Positions 30,425-42,634 of a DNA stretch of 64,000 bases are shown here, piece by piece. Position numbers and translations under genes: made by a program. The notes below the pieces were generated by a model. It was not told the origin of the DNA. It did no database searches and saw only the letters and a list, made by a program, of their open reading frames with translations. Location: the NCBI GenBank assembly GCA_048937405.1, contig JBHLNF010000009.1, positions 32,001 to 96,000 on the forward strand. Reading direction: 5' to 3'. Every line of letters starts with the position of its first letter. Position 1 is the first letter of the stretch. This DNA is from Promethearchaeota archaeon. GTDB taxonomy: Archaea > Asgardarchaeota > Lokiarchaeia > Sigyniarchaeales > SOKP01.

Positions 30425-30793
30425 ATGAATGGAAAGCAGAAATTTATCGTGTTACTTGGTGTATTTCAATTTGTCTTGATTTTTATTGTATTTTTCTCTG
30501 TTAATGGGATTATAACATTTGTTTCCGCACAAGATACCGCAAGTTCTTTTGATTATTATAATACAATAACTGCAGCAGCATTAGCAATTGGAGCATCAAT
30601 CTCAGTTGGAGCGGCATTAGTAGGAAGTGGTATGGCATTAAAAACTGTAGGTACTGCTGCAATTGCTTCCCTATCAGAGAGAGAAGAGACATTTTTTAAA
30701 GCATTTTTGGTTGTCGCTTTATGTGAAGCTTTAGCGATATATGGATTGATTATTGCTATACTTTTATGGACAAAGATTCCTGATATTCCATAA
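30425..30793 (+). CDS. atpK: A/V-type ATP synthase subunit K (c, proteolipid)
   Basis: Gly/Ala-rich hairpin; ion-binding Glu in VALCEALAIYGL; extra N-terminal hydrophobic segment. Confidence 0.92.
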   Translation: MNGKQKFIVLLGVFQFVLIFIVFFSVNGIITFVSAQDTASSFDYYNTITAAALAIGASISVGAALVGSGMALKTVGTAAIASLSEREETFFKAFLVVALCEALAIYGLIIAILLWTKIPDIP

Positions 30794-30848
30794 AATCAGT
30801 TTATTTATATAAATTTTTTTATCCTTTTCAAATTATGGTGATAAATTT

Positions 30849-31907
30849 ACGAGTTCAATCGTCCCATCCTATTCTTACACATTTATAAGAATAGGTTTTT
30901 TAAGAAAGCTAATAATTGATGATTATAATTTACTTAATATTGACAAAATAAATTCTATTGATACGCTTTTAGAATTTATTAATCCTTTCTACCCAGATTT
31001 AGCTATAAAAGAAAAAACTATTGAAAATATTGAAATGGCTCTTTATCATAACTATATTAAGATGGTTGGTAAAATAATGCTTTACTCACCATCAAATATG
31101 AAAACTTTTCTAACATTCTATCTCTTAAAATTTGAAATAATAAATATTAAACAAATTATCATTGGTTCAATTTTAGGCTTAAGAGTTAAAGATAAGAAAA
31201 AAATGGTTAATTTTGTTGTAGAAGAGTATTTAGATAACACAGAGTTCATTGATGATCTGCTTAAAATCTCATCTTTGGATGAAATTCAATATTTTATGAA
31301 AAAAACGAGATATAATATACCTATAAGTGAAGGTATTTCGTATTTTAAAAAATACAGAGAAATATTTGTTTTAGAAGCTTTTTTGGATAAATTTTACTAC
31401 GAAAATATGATAATTCAGTTAAATAATTTGAGAGCTCAAGAAAGAAAAATCATAGAGACATTTGTAAAATATAAGACTGAAATTTATAATTTAAAAATCA
31501 TTTTTCGAGGTTTAAAAAATGGTATTGAAAAAGAGTTATTGTCTCAATTTCTAATTGATTATCATTTATTTTTAGATATGGGTAAGATAAATTATTTATT
31601 AAGTATTGAAGATTTGAATGTTCTAATCTCTCTAATTGAAGAGTATATTAATAGTAATAGGGAATTAAAAAGAGGCTCTGAGCAGAAACTAGTTGATAGA
31701 GAGCATTTAATTAATTCAATTGAAGACTTATATCTTCATTATTATTTTATAAAATTTAAAATTAGTATGGGTGAAATTGATTTAATCACAATATTCAGAA
31801 TTTTAGAATTAATTATAAAGAAAGAAAATGAAATTAGATTTCATATTATTCCAAAAATAGTAAAAATAATTCATGAAAAATTTGAAAAATTACAATCAAT
31901 TGAATAA
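30849..31907 (+). CDS. atpC: A/V-type ATP synthase subunit C (d); start re-assigned to near-cognate ACG (or ATC 30858)
   Basis: The frame is open from TAA 30810. Upstream of ATG 31035 it encodes YSYTFIRIGFLRKLII (subunit C N-terminal Y-x-Y-xx-R motif). Also FEIINIK, LEAFLDKFYY, EIYNLK; 352 aa; SD GGTGA at 30837-41. Confidence 0.75.
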   Translation, partial: TSSIVPSYSYTFIRIGFLRKLIIDDYNLLNIDKINSIDTLLEFINPFYPDLAIKEKTIENIEMALYHNYIKMVGKIMLYSPSNMKTFLTFYLLKFEIINIKQIIIGSILGLRVKDKKKMVNFVVEEYLDNTEFIDDLLKISSLDEIQYFMKKTRYNIPISEGISYFKKYREIFVLEAFLDKFYYENMIIQLNNLRAQERKIIETFVKYKTEIYNLKIIFRGLKNGIEKELLSQFLIDYHLFLDMGKINYLLSIEDLNVLISLIEEYINSNRELKRGSEQKLVDREHLINSIEDLYLHYYFIKFKISMGEIDLITIFRILELIIKKENEIRFHIIPKIVKIIHEKFEKLQSIE

Positions 31908-31937
31908 TAAAAATATGGAAAATAATAGGTTATAACA

Positions 31938-32249
31938 ATGGAAATTTTCGAATGGATTAAAGAGATCGAAAAAGTTTATGAAAATTTGATTGAAAAAGCT
32001 AAAAATGAGAATTTAACTGAATTAGAAAGTTTGAGAGAAGAACAGGAAAATCTAATGGAAAAAAACATTGAAAATTTTCGAAATTCATCTGATTCAGCAT
32101 TGAAAACATTGACTAAAAATTTGGAGGATAAAAATATCTTTATAAAAGAGAAATTAAAAGAATTTAAAAATAAAATGAAAAAAACCTATAACGATAATAA
32201 AAAAAACTTAATAGAATTAATTATAAAAGATATTGGTTTTGATTTTTAA
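31938..32249 (+). CDS. atpH: A/V-type ATP synthase subunit H (G)
   Basis: 103-aa charged coiled coil (IKEIEK..E..IEKAK) in operon position. Confidence 0.65.
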   Translation: MEIFEWIKEIEKVYENLIEKAKNENLTELESLREEQENLMEKNIENFRNSSDSALKTLTKNLEDKNIFIKEKLKEFKNKMKKTYNDNKKNLIELIIKDIGFDF

Positions 32250-32569
32250 TGCCAGATCAGAAAATTCATGTATTAGGTCAAGAAGAATTTGTTTTAACAT
32301 TTGGTCTTTTAGGTATAGATGGTACTATTATTGAAAAAAGTGAAGAGTTTCTTAAGAAATTTGACACATTGATTAAAGATTCCTCAATTGGAATGATAAT
32401 AATTTTTATGGATTTATCAGATGAAATTATAGACTTTATTTTAGACTTTAAAATAAGCAATAAAAGTCCATTTATATTTTTTATACCTAATATTTTCCGA
32501 CTAGATTTTGAGAATCGAGATATATTTTTTAATAAAATTTTTGAATCTATTGAAAAAATTATAACTTAA
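32249..32569 (+). CDS. atpF: A/V-type ATP synthase subunit F
   Basis: KIHVLGQEEFVLTFGLLGI, IGMIII, P..IP; TAATG overlap with the upstream gene. Confidence 0.85.
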   Translation: MPDQKIHVLGQEEFVLTFGLLGIDGTIIEKSEEFLKKFDTLIKDSSIGMIIIFMDLSDEIIDFILDFKISNKSPFIFFIPNIFRLDFENRDIFFNKIFESIEKIIT

Positions 32570-32581
32570 GAGATGTAGATC

Positions 32582-33310
32582 ATATCAGAAATTAATTTAT
32601 TAAAAGAACGATTTGGGAAATTAGGATTATATCTTATTGATAAAGCTAAAACTGAAATTAAAAAGCTTGATCAACAAACCTTATTTCAAATTGCAGAAGT
32701 TAAAAAGAGGTATAGAGAACGAATAGCAGATAGTTCTTTAAAAATTAAAAATAGTTTTATTGATACATATAATAAGCAATTAAATAATTCAATATCTTCG
32801 ACCCTGTTAAAAATTAAGCAGGAAACATTAAGTGTTAAAAATGATTTAATTTCAACTTTAATTAAAGATTTAAATTTACTTTTAGAAAAAAAAATTAATG
32901 ATAATTATTCAAATTATATAAAATTCCTATTATCAACATTAGAAAAAATCAAAAATTTAATAGACAAGCCTCCACAAGTCGTTATAAATTTAAATTCTAA
33001 AGATTATGAATATTTTCTTGGGAAATTTGACAAAATTCAAAGTATTTTCAAAAATAGAGTTACATTAAATCCTACAAAAGATGAATTTATAGGAGGATTT
33101 AGAATTTTGCAGACTGAAATGAACATTTCTTATGATTTTTCCATTGTAAATTTAATAAATAAAAAAAAATCAAGTATCGAAATTAAATTCTCAAAAATCT
33201 TTTCAGATACATATTTAGAACTAAATGAAATAATCGAAAATTATGAAAAATTCATTCAAGATCAAAAATTAGCTATAAAAGAATATTTACAAGATTATGA
33301 CAATTTCTAA
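32582..33310 (+). CDS. atpE: A/V-type ATP synthase subunit E; start at near-cognate ATA (or ATC 32579)
   Basis: Stop-free frame from TAG 32576 to 33310 (242 aa): N-terminal coiled coil, LNSKD, IGGFRI, SYDFS. The first 175 codons contain no ATG/GTG/TTG, so the ORF track shows only the last 67 aa. Confidence 0.85.
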   Translation: MSEINLLKERFGKLGLYLIDKAKTEIKKLDQQTLFQIAEVKKRYRERIADSSLKIKNSFIDTYNKQLNNSISSTLLKIKQETLSVKNDLISTLIKDLNLLLEKKINDNYSNYIKFLLSTLEKIKNLIDKPPQVVINLNSKDYEYFLGKFDKIQSIFKNRVTLNPTKDEFIGGFRILQTEMNISYDFSIVNLINKKKSSIEIKFSKIFSDTYLELNEIIENYEKFIQDQKLAIKEYLQDYDNF

Positions 33311-35147
33311 TAAAAAAGCTTATGAGAAGTTAAATTTTGGGTATATAACCTCAATAAATGGATCCTTAATTGAAATAAAAGGATTTGAAAGTCAAGTTCG
33401 TACTCACGACTTAATAAGAGTATCTGAACAAAATATATTAGGTGAAGTGATTCAAATTTATTCAGATCACGCCACTGCTCAATGTTTCGAGAGTACTAAT
33501 AACTTAAAGTTAGGTGAGAAAGTAACCAATTTAAGAGAACCATTATCAATGGAGTTAGGTCCAGGATTATTAGGTAATGTTTTCGATGGTATTCAAAGAC
33601 CTTTAGATATAACCTTTGAAAATACAAATAAAGGTTTTTTAGAAAGAGGGAATGATTTACCAGCATTATCAAGAGAAAAAAAATGGCATTTCATTCCCAA
33701 AAAAAAATTAAATGACATTGTAAGTAGTGGTGATATTATTGGTACGGTACAGGAAACTCTAGTCATAGAACACAGAATATTGGTTCCAATAGGTATTAAA
33801 GGAAAATTGAGTTTTATAGCTAAAGAGGGAGATTATACGATTAAAGACAAAATATTTTGTGTGAAAGAGAAAAATGTTGAGAAATCTTTTAGTATGTTGC
33901 AAAAATGGCCAATTATCAAAAATAGACCTTATAAGAGGCGTGAATCTCCTATTGAACCATTAATTACAGGTATGCGGGTAATAGACCTATTATTTCCCAT
34001 AGCAAAAGGAGGTACTGTTGCTGTACCTGGAGGTTTTGGTACAGGTAAAACAGTAATTCAACAATCATTAGCTAAATGGTGTAATGCTGATGTTATTGTT
34101 TTTGTAGGATGTGGTGAAAGAGGAAATGAAATTGCAGATGTTTTAAAACAATTTATTGAAATAATTGATCCAAAAAGTGGAACTGCATTGTTGAATCGAA
34201 TAGTTTTAATAGCTAATACATCTAATATGCCAGTTTCAGCTCGAGAAGCTAGTATTTTTTCAGGAGTAACAATTGGAGAGTATTATCGAGATATGGGATA
34301 TGATGTAGCAGTATTAGCAGATAGTACCTCAAGGTGGGCAGAATCACTACGAGAGATCTCAGGATTATTAGAAGAAATGCCAGCTGAAGAGGGATATCCT
34401 GCGTATTTACCATCAAGAATTTCTAGTTTTTACGAGAGAGCTGGAGTTGTAAACCTTTTAGGTGAAGATCCCGCGAATAAAGAAAGATATGGATCTTTAA
34501 CAATAATCGGTTCTGTCTCCCCGCCTTCTGGAGATTTTAGTGAACCTGTTACGGCAACCACCAAACGTTTTGTACAGGCTTTTTGGGCATTAGATGCTAG
34601 TCTAGCATACTCTAAGCATTATCCTGCAATAAATTGGCTCAACTCTTATTCAAATTATCCCGATTATATAGTTGACTGGTGGTCTGATAGGGATATCTTT
34701 TGGCCTGAGATAAATCTCGATTGGTATGAAAGTAGGGATCAAGTGAATAACATTCTTTCTCAAGAAAATGAATTAAGAAATATAATGCAACTAATTGGGG
34801 AAGAAAATCTACCTGATGATCAACAATTAATTCTTTTTATTTCCAAATTAATTAGAAATAGTTTTTTAATTCAAAATGCCTTTGATGATATTGATAATTT
34901 CACTGATACTAAAAAACTACTTGGTCAGATTAAATTAATTCTTCTATTATATAAAGAAGGAATGGAACTATTAAATTCAGGATATTTAATTGAAGATATT
35001 AAGAACCTCGAAGTAATTGATGACATTTTACGAATAAGTTATTCGATTTCTAATGATAATTTTTCAGAAATAGAACAATTAAAGAAAAGGTTAAATAATG
35101 AAATAGAATCATTAAAATTATCATATGGGGTCTCTAAAGAAAAATGA
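33297..35147 (+). CDS. atpA: A/V-type ATP synthase catalytic subunit A
   Basis: PGGFGTGKT Walker [44 protein letters not shown]. Confidence 0.97.
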
Positions 35148-36535
35148 GTATTATCTATGGAAAAATTGAACAAATTGTAGGACCGTTGTTATTCTTAAGT
35201 AATGAACATGATGCACAATATGGGGAGATTGTTAAAATATTAACTAATGGTGGGATAGAACGTACTGGTCAAGTTGTAAAAATAGATGAAGATACTATTG
35301 TTATTGAAGTATTTGAAGATACAAGTGGTTTATCCTCAGAGAATTCTAAAATTCTTTTTACAGAGGATTCTTTTAAAGTTAAAATCTCGAATGATATGTT
35401 TGGTAGAACATTCAATTCACTTGGAAAACCAATTGATATAAATACTAAAAAGGTTTTAGAATCTGAGTTGATAACAGAAGTTGAACGAGATATTAATGGA
35501 GCACCAGTTAACCCATTCGCAAGAGAATACCCAACCGAAGTAATCCAGACAGGTATATCTGTTATTGACGGGCTGTTTACTTTAATAAGAGGACAAAAAC
35601 TTCCTATATTTAGTGGACAAGGAATGCCACATAATGCACTAGCGGCTCAAATTGTTACACAATCTAGAGTTTTAACAGAAGAACCTTTTCTAATTATTTT
35701 TTGTGGTATAGGAATTATCCAGGATGAAGCAATTTATTTTTTAAATAGGTTTCAAGAAAGTGGAAATATCCAAAATATCATTTCATTTATAAATTTTGCA
35801 GATGATCCCATAATGGAGCGTTTAATAATTCCAAGAGTAGCATTAACTACTGCAGAATATTTCGCTTTTGATAAAGATATGCACGTTCTTGTTATTTTAA
35901 TAGATATGACTAATTATGCTGAAGCATTAAGAGAACTTAGCTCAGCAAAAGAAGAGATTCCTAGTAGAAAAGGTTATCCAGGATATCTATATACTGATTT
36001 TGCTTCAATTTATGAGCGAACTGGCAAAATAAAAGGTAAAAAAGGAACAATAACTCAAATACCTATTCTAACAATGCCAAATGATGATATATCTCATCCA
36101 ATTCCAGATACCTCAGGATATATTACTGAGGGGCAATTAGTCCTTAATAGAAATTTGCATAAAAGAGGTATATATCCACCCTTTGAAGTTTTAGCTTCTA
36201 TATCGCGACTTATGAAAGATGCAATTGGTGAAAATACAACAAGAGAGGATCACAAGGATATAAGTTCCCAATTATTAGCTTCGTATTCAAATACTCTTGA
36301 AGTTAGAGATCTTATATCAATTGTTGGTGAAGATGGATTGAACAGTAATCAAAGATCTACGTTAAAGTTTGGAGAAATCTTCGAACATGAATTTTTAAAC
36401 CAAAACGTAAATGAGAATCGAGATTTTACAACAACTTTTAAAATAGCTTGGAAATCTTTATCTGCTTTACCAAAAAATCAATTATATAGAATTCATCAAG
36501 AATTTATTAAAAAATATTATCAAGAGCAGGTGTAA
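35144..36535 (+). CDS. atpB: A/V-type ATP synthase subunit B
   Basis: [47 protein letters not shown]. Confidence 0.97.
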
Positions 36536-36542
36536 TACTACT

Positions 36543-37193
36543 ATTAGTTTTAGAGAATTCAAACCTACAAAAACAAACTTAATGAGTTTACAGAAAAGAT
36601 TAAATTTTGCTGTGAAAGGTAAGAGCTTTTTAGAATTTAAACAAGAACAATTGATATTTGAAATTAAAAAGTTATGGAGTGACTATAAAATACAGCGTAA
36701 AAACTACCTAAATCTATTCATAGAAGTCATGATTTGCTTGCAACAGACTTATATGGAAATGGGAAAGAACAATTTTAAAATAATTAGTAGTTTGAGCAAA
36801 ATCCAATTCACCCCAACTATCAATGTTAACTATGTAAAAAAGATTGGTAATGTAGTACCAGAGATAGAATATGAACTAATAAGAAAAGAAAGACTTCCCG
36901 CTTATTCTTTTGAATATACAAGTCATTATCTAGATGACTTAATAAAAAAATTAACAAATCTTTTCAATATAATGATTCATTTGGCAGAAATCGAAGATGT
37001 AATGTTAAAACATTCGCTAAGTTTTAAAAAAATAACTCGAAGAATCCATGGACTAAATAATATTATTATCCCCTCACTTAGTCAAGAAATTAAAAAAATA
37101 AAAGATATATTAGAAGAAGTTCAACGAGAGAATTTTGTAAGATTAAAAAGTATAAAAGATCTAATTTATGAAAAAAAGTTTATAAAAATGTGA
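36543..37193 (+). CDS. atpD: A/V-type ATP synthase subunit D; start re-assigned to near-cognate ATT
   Basis: The conserved KPTKTNL motif lies upstream of the first ATG (36582). Also ITRRIHGLNNIIIP and RENFVRLK. SD CAGGTG at 36527-32. Confidence 0.85.
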   Translation: MSFREFKPTKTNLMSLQKRLNFAVKGKSFLEFKQEQLIFEIKKLWSDYKIQRKNYLNLFIEVMICLQQTYMEMGKNNFKIISSLSKIQFTPTINVNYVKKIGNVVPEIEYELIRKERLPAYSFEYTSHYLDDLIKKLTNLFNIMIHLAEIEDVMLKHSLSFKKITRRIHGLNNIIIPSLSQEIKKIKDILEEVQRENFVRLKSIKDLIYEKKFIKM

Positions 37194-37198
37194 ATGCG

Positions 37199-39481
37199 AT
37201 GGTAACCAAGACGGTAATGTGCTTATTTGACGTAGCTATACATAATGATTATAAAGATTTTCTATTACAAGAATTAGCTCAAATAAAAGTAGTTCATATT
37301 AGACCAAAAGAAAAAATAATTGAAAATGTCGAAAAAGGAGATCGTTTCTCTGAAAAAATAAAAACATTAAGATCTGAGATAGAAAGATTATTCAAAATGC
37401 TTAATATTACTGATAATGATATACAAAGGTTGAATGTTAAAAAAAAAGAAAGAATAGAGTTTGTTGTTAAAGATATCCTTGAATTAATAAACTATATTTT
37501 AGAAGAGATTAATTTCTATAATAATCGTGTAGCGGAATTAGGAAAATATGTAGCAAAAGTTAATATTGAACAAGATAAAATGAAAATTATTGAAGAAAGT
37601 TATAACTTTCTAAATAATATTGGGGTATCTAGAGATAATTTATCCCAATTAAAACAGTTATCTTTTAGAGTTTTTACCACTTTTTCAAAAAATTTGGTTT
37701 TCATAAAAAATCTTTTTGATTTTTCAAATTTTCCAAATTTTTTTGACACCCAAAAAATTTCAGAAGATCGAATAGTATTTTTCACAATTTATCCTAAAGA
37801 TAAAGAAGAAGATTTAAAAGAAAAACTTCGGGTTATTCAAGTAGAAGAAGTACCCATTTTAAAAAAATATCTACTTATTGATGGTATTAACTTTCCTAGA
37901 ATTAAAAGTGAAATTAATTTTATTACAAATACTTTAATTAAGTATGAAAAAGAATTGGAGCGGCTTAGAGATGATAATATAATATTATTCGCCGCTATGT
38001 ATGAAATTGTTCAAAATATCGAAGATTATGATTGGGCTGAGAATCAATTCAGAGATATATCATCAAATGCTTCAAGCCTTCAATTCTTTATTCCTGTGGG
38101 CCGAAAGGAGGAAGTTCGTAAAAGATTAATTGATGTTTTTAAAGATAAGATAAATATTCATTCTATGGAAATATCAAAAAAAACCATTATAAACGTTAAA
38201 GAAAAAGAACAGGAAGAAGATTTAAAAGAAAAATCATATTCAAAATATAAACTTAAGAATAAAGAGGTTATCTCGAGTAACGTAGAAGCAGATGAAGATT
38301 TAAGAGAAAAAACGCCACGACTTATGAAAAACAATTTTTTTGTAAGACCTTTCGAAACATTAACAAGAATGTATGGTACTCCTTCTTATTCTGAAATTGA
38401 TCCAACACCATTTTTAGCACTTATATTTCCTATTTTGTTTGGGTTAATGTTCGGTGACATTGGTCATGGGATAGTTTTAATTATAGCAGGTTTAATTGGT
38501 GCTGTCATTTTTAGAAATAAAAAAGGAACTGACTTTTTAAATTTTTGTTGGATAATCTTTTATTGTGGCCTGGGAGCTGTTTTATTTGGTTTTTTATATG
38601 GTGAATTTTTTGGAATGCATGACATAGAAATTGGAGGTCAAGTTTTTCTTCATCTAAATCCGGTTACAATTCCTATATTGAATATGACATTACATAATCC
38701 AATTTCGCGTGTAACAACGGTTTTAATATTTGCAATACTGATTGGTGTGATCCATATTAATTTAGGTTGGATAATACAGTTTTTGAATTATTGGAGACAA
38801 GCGAGAAAATATTTGGCAATTACAGATTCATTAGTTAAGATATTTTTATTAATTGGTGGTACAATTTTAATTTTAAATTATAAATTTGACATAAATGCAT
38901 GGGTATCACCACCATTTCCAATATTATTACCCTTGATTCCAGGCATATTACTCCTTATTTTAAAACCTATTGGCAAAATTCTAGGAGTATCGTATATGAA
39001 AGCTGAATCATATAAAGATCTTGTAAGTGAAGGTTCAATGGAAACATTTGAAACATTATTATCCGTAATAAGCAATGTTGCTTCTTATATACGATTATTA
39101 GCACTAGCACTAGCTCATATAGCTTTAATGATTGCCATCCAAGCAATGACAGATTTAATTGAAGGATCGGGATTTTGGGTTGAATTTGCAAAATCTACAG
39201 GTTTAATTTTCGGTAATATAGTGGTTATTCTTATAGAAGGATTATTAGTTTTTTTAAACGCGTTGAGGCTGAATTTTTATGAATTCTTTTTCAAATTTTA
39301 TAGTGGATCTGGAACAAAATTTTATCCCTTTTATTTAGGTGATAATTTTTCAATTATAAACTTTAAATTAAGTGATGAAAAGGATATTGTTTCTGAAGAA
39401 ATAGAAAGAGAAATTGAATCTAAGCAAATTCATGAGGACATTCTTGAAGCAACAAAACAAATTTCTAAAAAATATTTTTAA
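37199..39481 (+). CDS. atpI: A/V-type ATP synthase subunit I (a)
   Basis: YGTPSYSEIDPT, FGLMFGDIGHG, essential Arg in SYIRLLAL, LRLNFYEFF; start ATG 37199 or GTG 37190. Confidence 0.95.
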   Translation: MVTKTVMCLFDVAIHNDYKDFLLQELAQIKVVHIRPKEKIIENVEKGDRFSEKIKTLRSEIERLFKMLNITDNDIQRLNVKKKERIEFVVKDILELINYILEEINFYNNRVAELGKYVAKVNIEQDKMKIIEESYNFLNNIGVSRDNLSQLKQLSFRVFTTFSKNLVFIKNLFDFSNFPNFFDTQKISEDRIVFFTIYPKDKEEDLKEKLRVIQVEEVPILKKYLLIDGINFPRIKSEINFITNTLIKYEKELERLRDDNIILFAAMYEIVQNIEDYDWAENQFRDISSNASSLQFFIPVGRKEEVRKRLIDVFKDKINIHSMEISKKTIINVKEKEQEEDLKEKSYSKYKLKNKEVISSNVEADEDLREKTPRLMKNNFFVRPFETLTRMYGTPSYSEIDPTPFLALIFPILFGLMFGDIGHGIVLIIAGLIGAVIFRNKKGTDFLNFCWIIFYCGLGAVLFGFLYGEFFGMHDIEIGGQVFLHLNPVTIPILNMTLHNPISRVTTVLIFAILIGVIHINLGWIIQFLNYWRQARKYLAITDSLVKIFLLIGGTILILNYKFDINAWVSPPFPILLPLIPGILLLILKPIGKILGVSYMKAESYKDLVSEGSMETFETLLSVISNVASYIRLLALALAHIALMIAIQAMTDLIEGSGFWVEFAKSTGLIFGNIVVILIEGLLVFLNALRLNFYEFFFKFYSGSGTKFYPFYLGDNFSIINFKLSDEKDIVSEEIEREIESKQIHEDILEATKQISKKYF

Positions 39482-39507
39482 CTCACATTTTAATTGATTA
39501 TTGAATT

Positions 39508-39927
39508 ATGGAAAATGATAACAAAAAAGTCTCTCAGAAGGACGTTATTCGTAAAACTATTAGTATGATTTTTCTAATAATATTTCTATTAATTCTTTAT
39601 TATTTTTTAATCAATTTTAAAACAAATCCTATTATTATCATTCTAATTATCAGTTTTATACTCGTAACTTTTCTAGGACTTATATTTAAAAACCGGACAA
39701 AAAACCTTTATTCAAGAATGTTCCCTGATAAAGATAAAAGGAAAAATCAACCTTATCGGAAAAAAGAATTATATAAAATAGAAGGAGAACCTGAAATAAG
39801 AAAATTGTCAGATGTAAGCCTCAATTTTAAATATCGTAAACCTCTCATTAATAGATGTATGAAATGTGGAATGACACTTCCAAGTTATGTCAAAAAATGT
39901 CCTATTTGTGGTACACCAAATAAATAA
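39508..39927 (+). CDS. 2-TM protein with C-terminal Zn ribbon
   Basis: Two hydrophobic helices; CMKC-x10-CPIC. Confidence 0.7.
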   Translation: MENDNKKVSQKDVIRKTISMIFLIIFLLILYYFLINFKTNPIIIILIISFILVTFLGLIFKNRTKNLYSRMFPDKDKRKNQPYRKKELYKIEGEPEIRKLSDVSLNFKYRKPLINRCMKCGMTLPSYVKKCPICGTPNK

Positions 39928-39967
39928 AATAATTAAAAAAATAAAAAAAAAATTTGGATAGTAATTA

Positions 39968-41785
39968 ATGTCAGTTGAAGAACTTCATAAATATGGTGTA
40001 ATTACATCAATTAAAGGTTCAATAATTAAAATAAAAGGATTAGAAAATGAAATAAGACTTCATGACTTAGTCAAAATTTCTAACCATAATATTTTAAGTG
40101 AAGTTATTCAAATTTATCCTAATTACATTGTAGCCCAATCTTATGATGATACAAATAGTTTAAGGTTATATGAAAAAGTCATTAATCTTAAAAAACCATT
40201 ATCCATGGAGTTAGCTCCTGGATTGATGGCAAATGTCTTTGATGGAATTCAAAGGCCTTTAGAAACAATTTTTGAGCATTATAAAGAAGGAAAATTAGAA
40301 AAAGGAATCGATTTTTCACCATTATCAAGAAAAAAAAAATGGCATTTTGTGCCGCTAAGAAAAAAAGGTGATAATGTAAATAGTGGAGACATTATTGGAA
40401 CAGTACAAGAAACTGAAGTAATTACCCATAAAATTATGATTCCACCTACAGTTTTTGGGAAAATAACTTTAATTGCAGAAGAGGGAGATTATAATATAAT
40501 AGATACAATTTATTGTTTAACAGAAAATGGACAAGAAACCTCGTTCTCAATGTTACAAAAATGGCCAATTACTAAAAGGAGACCCTTTGAAAGGAAAATT
40601 AAACCAAATGAACCATTATTGACAGGAACACGAATAATTGATTTACTATTTCCAATAGCAAAAGGAGGGACATCTGCAGTTCCAGGAGGATTTGGTACAG
40701 GGAAAACAGTTATTTTACAAACAATTGCAAAGTATTGTAAAGCCGATATAATTATTTTTATAGGCTGTGGGGAGCCAGGTAATGAAATTGCTAATGTTTT
40801 AAAACAATTTAAAGAGATTTATGATGCTAAAAATGGGAGACCATTATTAGATCGCACAATTATTATTGCAAATACTTCAAATATGCCTGTATCTGCTCGT
40901 GATGCCAGTCTTTTTTCAGGAGTCACTATAGCGGAGTACTATAGAGATATGGGATATGATGTTGCCGTTCTTGCAGATAGTACATCAAGATGGGCAGAAT
41001 CCTTAAGAGAAATATGTGGATTATTGGAAGAAATGCCAGCCGAAGAAGGATACCCTGCATATTTACCAACAAGACTCTCAAGTTTTTATGAAAGAGCGGG
41101 TGTTTTTAGAACCAATGGACGAAATCATTTAGGAAAACAAACTATTGGGTCTTTGACAATTATAGGATCAATATCGCCTCCTGCAGGAGATTTTAATGAG
41201 CCAGTTACTACAGTTACTAAAAGGGTTGTACAATCATTATTAGCTCTAGATAATAAATTAGCATACTTAAAACAATATCCTGCTATAAATTGGATGAAAT
41301 CTTATTCAAATTATCCTGAGCAAATTTCAGAATGGTGGAGAAATAACGATATTTATTGGTCAGAAATTGATCTAGATTGGATAGGGTGTCAAAAACAAGT
41401 AGATGAAATACTATCAAAAGATCATGAGTTAAAATTTATAACACAGTTAATTGGAAAGAAAAATTTACCTGATGATCAAAAACTTGATCTTTTTATGGCA
41501 AAATTAATTCAAAATAGTTTTCTAAGTCAAAATGCATTTGTAGAGATCGACAATTTTACAGAACATAAGAAATTATTGGGATTAATTAAAATAATTCTAT
41601 TATTTTTCAAAGAGGGAAAAATTCTGTTAAAAAAAGGATTTAGATTTGATGAGAATAAGGAAGACGAGGTCATGAATAGTATTATGAGAATTACCCATTC
41701 CATTCCAAATGCAGATTTTGACCAAATAGAACAATTTAAAAATAAGATGCTTAGCGATATTTTAAAATTGGTTTTTGTAAGATAA
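39968..41785 (+). CDS. atpA: Second, divergent A/V-ATPase subunit A paralog (GEPGNE variant)
   Basis: Full-length homolog of 33297..35147; Walker [10 protein letters not shown] intact; GCGEPGNE and SARDAS variants. Confidence 0.93.
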   Translation: MSVEELHKYGVITSIKGSIIKIKGLENEIRLHDLVKISNHNILSEVIQIYPNYIVAQSYDDTNSLRLYEKVINLKKPLSMELAPGLMANVFDGIQRPLETIFEHYKEGKLEKGIDFSPLSRKKKWHFVPLRKKGDNVNSGDIIGTVQETEVITHKIMIPPTVFGKITLIAEEGDYNIIDTIYCLTENGQETSFSMLQKWPITKRRPFERKIKPNEPLLTGTRIIDLLFPIAKGGTSAVPGGFGTGKTVILQTIAKYCKADIIIFIGCGEPGNEIANVLKQFKEIYDAKNGRPLLDRTIIIANTSNMPVSARDASLFSGVTIAEYYRDMGYDVAVLADSTSRWAESLREICGLLEEMPAEEGYPAYLPTRLSSFYERAGVFRTNGRNHLGKQTIGSLTIIGSISPPAGDFNEPVTTVTKRVVQSLLALDNKLAYLKQYPAINWMKSYSNYPEQISEWWRNNDIYWSEIDLDWIGCQKQVDEILSKDHELKFITQLIGKKNLPDDQKLDLFMAKLIQNSFLSQNAFVEIDNFTEHKKLLGLIKIILLFFKEGKILLKKGFRFDENKEDEVMNSIMRITHSIPNADFDQIEQFKNKMLSDILKLVFVR

Positions 41786-42040
41786 TCTAAGAAGTGTAAA
41801 ACTAATGCATCAATTTTTTTATCTGTATTTTTTCTTTATTTTTTTAAATAAACCATTACCTAAAATAAAAATAATTTATTGATATTTAACTGTAAATCTA
41901 ATATATAGCTTAATTATAAAATAGATAATAAAATGTGTTAAAGTAGTAATTTTAATATTTTAAGATAAAAACTATTTAATAGTAAAATTTAGAATAACTT
42001 ATTAATACAATTCAATCAGTAAGTATAGTTAATTTTCATT

Positions 42041-42634
42041 TTACGGCTTAAACCATTCAAAGAAATAATATGATTTTGTTAATGGGTTTGCAATAACAAA
42101 CTTTTTCCTTACTGACGTTGCGAGTCTTCCTGCTCTAACCATATCAATAGCAGTAATTTCAGAATCATGAGGTAAAACGTGAACCATAAAAAGTGAATGT
42201 TCTAAACCTGGTCCTTTTTTATAAACGACATAATCTGCACCAAATTTAAGACCTGGTCTTGGAATATATCCCTTTTCCCTTAAGTCTTTGTATATGATAT
42301 ATTTTTCTTCAAATTTATGATGAATTTTCTTAGCAATCTCATGAAATTCCTTAGAATTTAATAGTTTATTCTCTTTTACATCATGAATTGTTATTTCTTC
42401 CGATTCCAATAAAAAATAAGCCTCTATTAAAGATAATTCACTTGGCTTGGAAAAATATTCTAATCTGGGTTTATTTATACCCAATGGAGAACCAAAAAAT
42501 CCTTTCTTAACATATAAATATGAAGCATATAAAGGATTGAAAACTATAACCCTTGAATTAATAAATTTTGTTGGAATTTTATCTGGTAGTTCAATATCAT
42601 CAAGAGAGATTTGATTGTCATTACTTTGGGTCAT
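42041..42634 (-). CDS. endA: tRNA-splicing endonuclease (tRNA-intron lyase), catalytic subunit
   Basis: LSLIEAYFL, YKDLREKGY, GLKFGADYVVY, GPGLEHS, RLATSVRKK (Tyr/His/Lys triad). Confidence 0.93.
   Translation of the reverse strand: MTQSNDNQISLDDIELPDKIPTKFINSRVIVFNPLYASYLYVKKGFFGSPLGINKPRLEYFSKPSELSLIEAYFLLESEEITIHDVKENKLLNSKEFHEIAKKIHHKFEEKYIIYKDLREKGYIPRPGLKFGADYVVYKKGPGLEHSLFMVHVLPHDSEITAIDMVRAGRLATSVRKKFVIANPLTKSYYFFEWFKP

Follow-up and report, generated by a model that had tools for sequence, protein, structure and literature searches.

A second subunit A with proline in place of the phosphate-binding arginine in the A/V-type ATPase operon of one Lokiarchaeia-type Asgard family

The A/V-type ATPase operon of a Promethearchaeota archaeon, located in a 64,000-nucleotide stretch of contig JBHLNF010000009.1 (positions 32,001 to 96,000; hereafter the window, whose own numbering is used throughout), encodes two proteins of the catalytic subunit A type: the canonical subunit, A1 (gene atpA1), and a paralog at the end of the operon, A2 (atpA2), in which the phosphate-binding Arg of the GER motif is replaced by Pro. 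The features that define the pair are the following.

39968..41785, + strand: atpA2, second subunit A, 605 amino acids, GER Arg replaced by Pro (open reading frame (ORF), translation, Pfam, NCBIfam, AlphaFold2 (AF2) model)
40772-40774, + strand: GAG, catalytic Glu269 of A2, kept in all A2 copies
40775..40777, + strand: CCA, Pro270 of A2, at the site of the phosphate-binding Arg of GER; Pro in 104/104 A2, Arg in 62/62 A1
33297..35147, + strand: atpA1, canonical catalytic subunit A, 616 amino acids (GCGERGNE, Pfam, NCBIfam)
34119-34121, + strand: AGA, Arg275 of A1 (sequence)

The atpA2 ORF is stop-free and full-length both in the ORF list and in the translation of the window, and its product reads GCGEPGNE at the position where A1 reads GCGERGNE. 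An initial annotation, made from the sequence alone, had reported exactly this pair of motifs (CCA at 40775 versus AGA at 34119) and a frame-intact paralog at the operon end, and ORFs and translations agree with it. A1 and A2 are 64% identical across 597 residues, A2 and subunit B about 26%, and a search of the window's own genome (4.47 Mb, 29 contigs) returned A1, A2 and B as its only ATP-synt_ab members. A2 matches PF16886 (7.7e-31), PF00006 (5.9e-68) and PF22919 (9.9e-16), corresponding to an N-terminal barrel, a barrel-sandwich 'bulge', a P-loop nucleotide-binding domain and a C-terminal helical domain. It scores 712.7 bits against the NCBIfam subfamily model NF003220, above the cut-off of 470; for the archaeal equivalog TIGR01043 (cut-off 972) both A2 (701) and canonical A1 (772) lie below the threshold.

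The phosphate-binding Arg of GER is the one subunit A feature that A2 lacks. Walker A (GFGTGKT, residues 240-247, found in all mapped A2 copies, one of which has GKS), the Glu of GE(R/P), the SAR arginine, [17 protein letters not shown] and GDF(S/N)EPVT are all retained, as are the Walker B Asp and DSTSRWAE, which reads DSISRWAE in some A2 copies; the comparison thus confirms that Walker A, the catalytic Glu and DSTSRWAE are kept in the window A2. SARDAS in place of SAREAS, which the annotation had listed beside the proline, is real in the window A2 but is not a hallmark of A2, since other A2 copies read SAREAS; it is limited to a small subclade (the window, P0003, G177/P0004 and P0273).

A2 resembles the catalytic subunit A (AtpA/NtpA) in its four-domain architecture, length, motifs and A/V-ATPase operon setting, and its best PDB matches (E ~1e-162 to 1e-148) are to this subunit, for which the structures of Pyrococcus horikoshii (1VDZ/3M4Y), Thermus thermophilus (3A5C) and Enterococcus hirae (3VR2) are examples. 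It differs from AtpA/NtpA in that the GER Arg (R264 in P. horikoshii, R262 in E. hirae) is Pro in every A2, in occurring alongside a canonical A as an additional copy, and in the reversed charge within the C-terminal helix-turn-helix. Subunits B and alpha offer a natural precedent, as paralogs of the catalytic subunit in which nucleotide binding survived the loss of catalysis and which became fixed in the head; unlike these ancient and obligatory subunits, which lack the catalytic Glu and, in B, also the P-loop, A2 keeps both, is about 64% identical to A1, restricted to one family and dispensable.

In the AF2 model of A2 (predicted local distance difference test, pLDDT, 92.3) Pro270 directly precedes helix 271-283, the counterpart of the 'arm' helix of E. 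hirae, residues 261-275 (PMC5095293), and this is a placement that tolerates Pro. Six residues past Pro270, in the same arm helix, Asn276 of A2 (40793-40795; GNEIAD to GNEIAN) is Asn in 88% of A2 sequences and always Asp in A1, and constitutes a fifth, softer A2 signature.

To determine the distribution of the variant we searched a degenerate DNA pattern for C-G-E-P-G-N-E across 399 Asgard species genomes. The pattern occurred once each in 80 of them, all from the window's own family f1 (79/133 plus the window genome), and in 0/265 genomes of other Asgard families; a reversed control pattern gave two matches in the scan. All four Pro codons, CCA, CCT, CCG and CCC, are in use among the GEP copies. 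The proline is thus neither private to this assembly nor a read error, two possibilities that the annotation had named as fatal to its proposal, because the same change is found in 80 genomes with all four codons, and none of the other adverse computational outcomes that it had listed was observed. Since the substitution also recurs at the same operon position in 80 genomes, it is not a product of chance. The motif is exactly GCGEPGNE in 81 of the 120 nearest database proteins, GEPGSE in six more, including KKK41596.1 of Lokiarchaeum sp. GC14_75 (annotated 'V-type ATP synthase alpha chain'), and GER in the remainder. Representatives at 50% identity, which place A1 and A2 in one cluster and were used for outgroups and for a census of the Arg only, have Arg at the GER site in 133 of 141 diverse A-type catalytic subunits, with Pro in A2 only. 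The census also contained divergent A-like proteins of other lineages without the GER Arg (P0178, P0183, P0198, P0225, P0232, P0236 and P0245), with motifs such as GLSGNE, GICGNK, CEKSNE, AESGNE and others, so that non-canonical A-type paralogs may exist elsewhere.

The GER pattern is present in 75 of the 80 GEP genomes. In the remaining five (G150, G315, G297, G302 and G259) a contig end lies inside the operon, and hence no genome is established as having A2 only. Conversely, A2 is cleanly absent from at least ten good genomes of the same family. Five relatives that are 97-100% complete have A and B only, and in G174, G057, G077, G121 and G198 the Zn-ribbon gene that otherwise precedes atpA2 directly adjoins the downstream gene.

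Next, we aligned 104 A2 with 62 A1 sequences. Four columns alone separate the two groups (R→P, I→L, S→L and E→K).

40775..40777, + strand: R275 (A1) / P270 (A2); 100% R in A1, 100% P in A2
40910..40912, + strand: I320 (A1) / L315 (A2), after SAR(E/D)AS; I in 62/62 A1, L in 103/104 A2 (99%)
41267..41269, + strand: S439 (A1) / L434 (A2), three positions before the Tyr of YPAINW; S in 56/62 A1 (90%), L in 99/104 A2 (95%)
41459..41461, + strand: E503 (A1) / K498 (A2), charge reversal, LIGEENLP to LIGKKNLP; E in 62/62 A1, K/R in 95/104 A2 (91%)

The AF2 model places Lys498 between helices 471-495 and 502-519, at the turn of the C-terminal helix-turn-helix.

Selection on the two copies was compared by the method of Nei and Gojobori (NG86) in ten genome pairs, the same for A1 and A2. 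The ratio of nonsynonymous to synonymous substitution rates (dN/dS) was 0.09-0.28 for A2 versus 0.075-0.12 for A1, values that are rough for several pairs in which dS exceeds 1 and is near saturation. The ratio is not near 1, so that A2 is under purifying selection, a point on which the annotation had asked for a check. The ORFs are full-length in all mapped cases but one, a single stop in G180, and the marks of a pseudogene, relaxed selection and broken frames, do not characterize A2. One might still regard A2 as a decaying or neutral duplicate, or its Pro as an assembly or sequencing artefact, as duplicates often decay and A2 has been lost in some lineages. We give this explanation next to no chance; it is refuted by the dN/dS values, by the conservation of motifs and residues and by the occurrence of the variant in 80 genomes with all four Pro codons. 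A2 is almost certainly a genuine, selected paralog that is defined by loss of the phosphate-binding Arg.

In a tree of 79 sequences calculated with IQ-TREE, 32 of 34 GEP sequences form one clade (91 in the Shimodaira-Hasegawa-like approximate likelihood ratio test, SH-aLRT), which is nested among the A1 sequences of the family and mirrors their groupings with branches about 1.5-2 times longer. The exception is genus g3 (G040 and G180), where A2 groups with its own A1, to which it is 81% identical along its whole length, compared with about 64% elsewhere. The g3 A2 is A1-like at six of 13 weaker discriminating sites and retains all four strong ones. GEP might have arisen a second time in g3, by convergence; however, a single clade for all GEP sequences was not rejected by the approximately unbiased (AU) test (p = 0.23) and the g3 copy sits at the same locus, and for these two reasons we prefer that the g3 A2 was largely homogenised with its own A1 by gene conversion. 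Whichever history applies, g3 keeps the four strong residues, indicating that selection holds them. In our reading, A2 arose from an old duplication of the catalytic subunit of the A/V-type ATPase, has been inherited vertically and is restricted to a single Asgard family of the Lokiarchaeia type.

To see which parts of A2 are constrained we calculated the column entropy ratio A2/A1, averaged per domain, for the 17 genomes with both copies. The ratio is 1.03 for the N-terminal barrel and 1.00 for the bulge, compared with 1.41 for the nucleotide-binding domain and 1.38 for the C-terminal domain. In known enzymes barrel and bulge form the crown and contact the peripheral stalks. Crown and bulge are thus under the same constraint in A2 as in A1, the catalytic and rotor-pushing parts being somewhat relaxed.

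atpA2 belongs to an A/V-type ATPase operon at 30425-41785 (+ strand) with the order K-C-H-F-E-A1-B-D-I, followed by a Zn-ribbon membrane gene and A2. Apart from atpA1 and atpA2, the operon and its 3' flank comprise the following.

30425-30793, + strand: ATPase subunit K (ORF, PF00137)
31035-31907, + strand: ATPase subunit C (ORF, conserved order by tblastn)
31938-32249, + strand: ATPase subunit H (ORF, conserved order by tblastn)
32249-32569, + strand: ATPase subunit F (ORF, conserved order by tblastn)
ending at 33310, + strand: ATPase subunit E (ORF, conserved order by tblastn)
35144..36535, + strand: atpB, sole non-catalytic subunit B of the genome (Pfam, own-genome search)
36582..37193, + strand: atpD, central stalk, coordinates from the first ATG (PF01813)
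37190..39481, + strand: atpI, membrane stator subunit a/I (PF01496)
39508..39927, + strand: membrane protein of 139 amino acids with C-terminal Zn ribbon (weak PF13240 match, synteny maps)
41786..42040, no strand: AT-rich spacer with oligo-T runs 3' of atpA2 (sequence)
42041-42634, - strand: tRNA-intron endonuclease gene, convergent to atpA2 (PF01974)

The upstream order K-C-H-F-E is conserved in more than 30 relatives (tblastn). In every mapped case the GER copy is flanked by E and B, and the GEP copy lies 3' of atpI and the Zn-ribbon gene and 5' of the same two flanking genes. As a convergent tRNA-intron endonuclease gene follows after the spacer, A2 is the final gene of the operon. A conserved promoter was sought between the Zn-ribbon gene and A2 and none was found, the spacers being 20-60 nt long, AT-rich and unconserved, which suggests, as the simplest reading, that A2 is co-transcribed with the operon.

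The Zn-ribbon protein is predicted to cross the membrane with two helices and carries a CxxC...CxxC motif at its C terminus, and its gene is located directly 3' of atpI across the family. The annotation had considered that A2 might act together with this neighbour. The synteny does not bear out a special link, since the gene persists 3' of atpI in many relatives without A2 (G008, G144, G147, G174, G138, G171, G019, G030, G186, G168, G057, G077, G121 and G198). The protein may serve the ATPase as an accessory or assembly factor that has so far gone unrecognised. In two of these genomes, both from the window's genus, the A2 slot is filled by an opposite-strand gene of 335 amino acids resembling fructose-bisphosphatase/inositol monophosphatase (FBPase/IMPase).

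L048:14329-15336, - strand: FBPase/IMPase-like gene of G008, replacing the A2 slot
L071:2323-3327, + strand: FBPase/IMPase-like gene of G171, replacing the A2 slot

The gene order bears on the question of where A2 acts. A2 might work outside the rotary head, as a free nucleotide sensor, as an assembly factor of A1AO or in another complex, and merely ride in the operon. Its position behind a non-ATPase gene at the operon end, its dispensability in many relatives and the somewhat relaxed nucleotide-binding and C-terminal domains would fit such a role. However, the N-terminal barrel and bulge are constrained like those of A1, only four residues differ systematically between A1 and A2, homogenisation with A1 is tolerated, and no dedicated partner gene accompanies A2, the Zn-ribbon gene being independent of it. 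A function outside the head therefore seems rather unlikely to us.

The annotation had identified the missing Arg as a ligand of phosphate, and structural and mutational data on related enzymes support this assignment. A-Arg262 is one of the gamma-phosphate contacts in E. hirae V1, alongside the P-loop Lys and the Arg finger of subunit B (PMC5095293). In E. coli F1 the equivalent Arg was changed in beta-R182Q/K, which removes the same GER residue as in A2: ATP synthesis was lost, ATPase activity fell to 0.02/0.25 from 42 U/mg (a loss of ~99-99.95%), binding of inorganic phosphate (Pi) was abolished with MgADP binding unaffected, and beta-R182Q no longer bound a transition-state analogue (PMC3268026). 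These are laboratory mutants of an F-type beta subunit with all three sites changed, whereas A2 is natural, carries Pro, is of the A/V type and occurs beside a wild-type A1. By analogy with beta-R182Q/K the description of A2 as nucleotide-binding and catalytically crippled is well supported, and we consider it very probable that A2 is crippled in catalysis.

The alternative that A2 is a working catalytic isoform has to be weighed against these data. Pro would then retune kinetics or affinity, making the site slow, tightly coupled or different in its nucleotide or Pi dependence, and heads containing some or only A2 would operate under particular conditions. The remaining catalytic-site motifs of A2 are almost invariant, the nucleotide-binding domain contains three of the four diagnostic changes, which might have a compensatory role, and rotary catalysis withstands single alanine changes at other catalytic residues, such F1 mutants still rotating, 10^3-10^4 times slower (PMC5380711). 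On the other hand, even the conservative exchange beta-R182K abolishes ATP synthesis and Pi binding (PMC3268026), no diagnostic change brings a positive charge into the nucleotide-binding domain, A2 is never seen without A1 apart from the five operons cut by contig ends, and the Arg is retained in all 62 A1 sequences as well as in the great majority of the diverse representatives (133/141). A working isoform is thus unlikely.

A model for a three-site motor with one impaired subunit is available in the hybrid F1 alpha3 beta2 beta(E190D) gamma, where the single slow beta causes one pause per turn, at the hydrolysis angle of that subunit (PMC2755722). This hybrid is an artificial mixture, whereas A1/A2 hybrid heads are a proposal only. 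Our favoured reading, which we regard as evenly poised, is that A2 is a nucleotide-binding, non-working subunit that enters the motor head and restrains rotation. With P-loop, Glu, Walker B and SAR-Arg intact A2 should still bind Mg-nucleotide. Lacking the Arg ligand of the gamma-phosphate, Pi and the transition state, it would neither hold Pi nor stabilise the transition state, and would therefore neither make ATP nor split it efficiently. A2 would replace one or more A1 next to B in the A3B3 head, as crown and bulge are constrained like those of A1, no second B subunit exists and only four diagnostic residues distinguish the copies; that A2 takes the place of A1 in the head is, on balance, probable. 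In such a head one site would behave as if permanently product-inhibited or non-hydrolysing, so that ATP-driven rotation would stall or slow there, and by analogy one A2 per head should suffice to gate it. Ion-driven rotation could still pass the A2 site, and the exchange of Glu for Lys in the C-terminal helix-turn-helix suggests an altered rotor contact. A2 would in this way act as a brake or ratchet on the wastage of ATP by hydrolysis, a role that we suggest tentatively, as somewhat short of an even chance. The annotation had put forward both the swap of A2 into A3B3 and the brake on hydrolysis, and we find the two ideas plausible.

Hydrolysis is restrained in other rotary ATPases by bacterial epsilon, mitochondrial IF1, alphaproteobacterial zeta and MgADP inhibition; to our knowledge no dedicated ATP hydrolysis inhibitor protein has been described in archaea. 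The likeness to A2 is confined to the proposed outcome, less wasteful ATP-driven rotation: epsilon, IF1 and zeta are small add-on proteins, MgADP inhibition is a kinetic state, and none is related to A2 in sequence or structure.

Several points weigh against a non-working subunit in the head. A2 is dispensable in family f1, and the advantage of a poison subunit that is co-transcribed with its target is not obvious. The A2 site is nearly invariant, its catalytic Glu included, and chemistry could still be possible there; judged from the F1 alanine mutants, a 'dead' A2 site may mean a 'very slow' one. Moreover, the equivalence of the Lys498 turn with the DELSEED loop of F1 beta, a rotor contact, is putative, and the other diagnostic residues are presumably near the nucleotide pocket, a placement derived from secondary structure and homology.

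A2 in the head could also act as a gear shift. If A2 stood in for one or two A1, two or one productive sites per turn would be left, giving a higher ratio of ions per ATP, so that ATP could be made at very low ion-motive force by a one-way ratchet unable to burn ATP, an adaptation of energy-starved Lokiarchaeia. We consider this improbable; if true, no known rotary ATPase would offer a parallel.

Few enzymes are as well understood as the rotary ATPases, whose catalytic subunit is regarded as unable to do without the GER arginine. Yet an entire family of the Asgard archaea, which are related to the ancestor of eukaryotes and live close to the thermodynamic limit, keeps across species and genera an extra catalytic-type subunit without exactly this Arg. 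If A2 enters the head, it would form the first natural mixed-head rotary ATPase and provide a new control of ATP hydrolysis or of the coupling ratio in archaea. There are also consequences for annotation, as databases name A1 and A2 alike ('V-type ATP synthase subunit A'), and unnoticed A1/A2 paralogy and gene conversion can disturb ATPase-based trees. A description of the GEPGNE paralog was not found in the literature on Asgard or Loki ATP synthase paralogs and duplication or on Prometheoarchaeum, most subscription papers lying outside the coverage. A transporter survey reported that only the Loki metagenome-assembled genome combines an A-type ATPase with a eukaryote-like one of the V type (PMC7997004); the two A genes may be the source of this two-ATPase reading.

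Further unusual A subunits were observed in relatives. G183 (family f1, genus g8, 97% complete) encodes at L063:8100-10000 (- strand) a sole A with GCGIRGNE, in which the catalytic Glu is replaced by Ile, and with the P-loop GAVGTGKT; A2 is absent and no Zn-ribbon match follows atpI. It is odd for the only catalytic subunit of a genome to lack this Glu. In genus g6 the A1 of G144 (L049) and G138 (L052) reads SARGAS and DSTSRYAE, both genomes being without A2. The A1 of G171 (L071:8169-11639, - strand) is a frame of 1155 amino acids with an insertion of about 500 amino acids in the nucleotide-binding domain, presumably an intein. G281, from the window's genus and 98% complete, contains neither a match to subunit A (E <= 1e-30) nor a GER or GEP pattern, the operon being either unassembled or unbinned, or missing. 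Finally, genus g35 of family f5 (for example G127, G133, G166 and G187) has two different genes for subunit A, both without the GEP pattern, which are located on separate contigs, share about 43-45% identity with A2 and, unlike A1/A2, probably belong to two complete ATPase operons.

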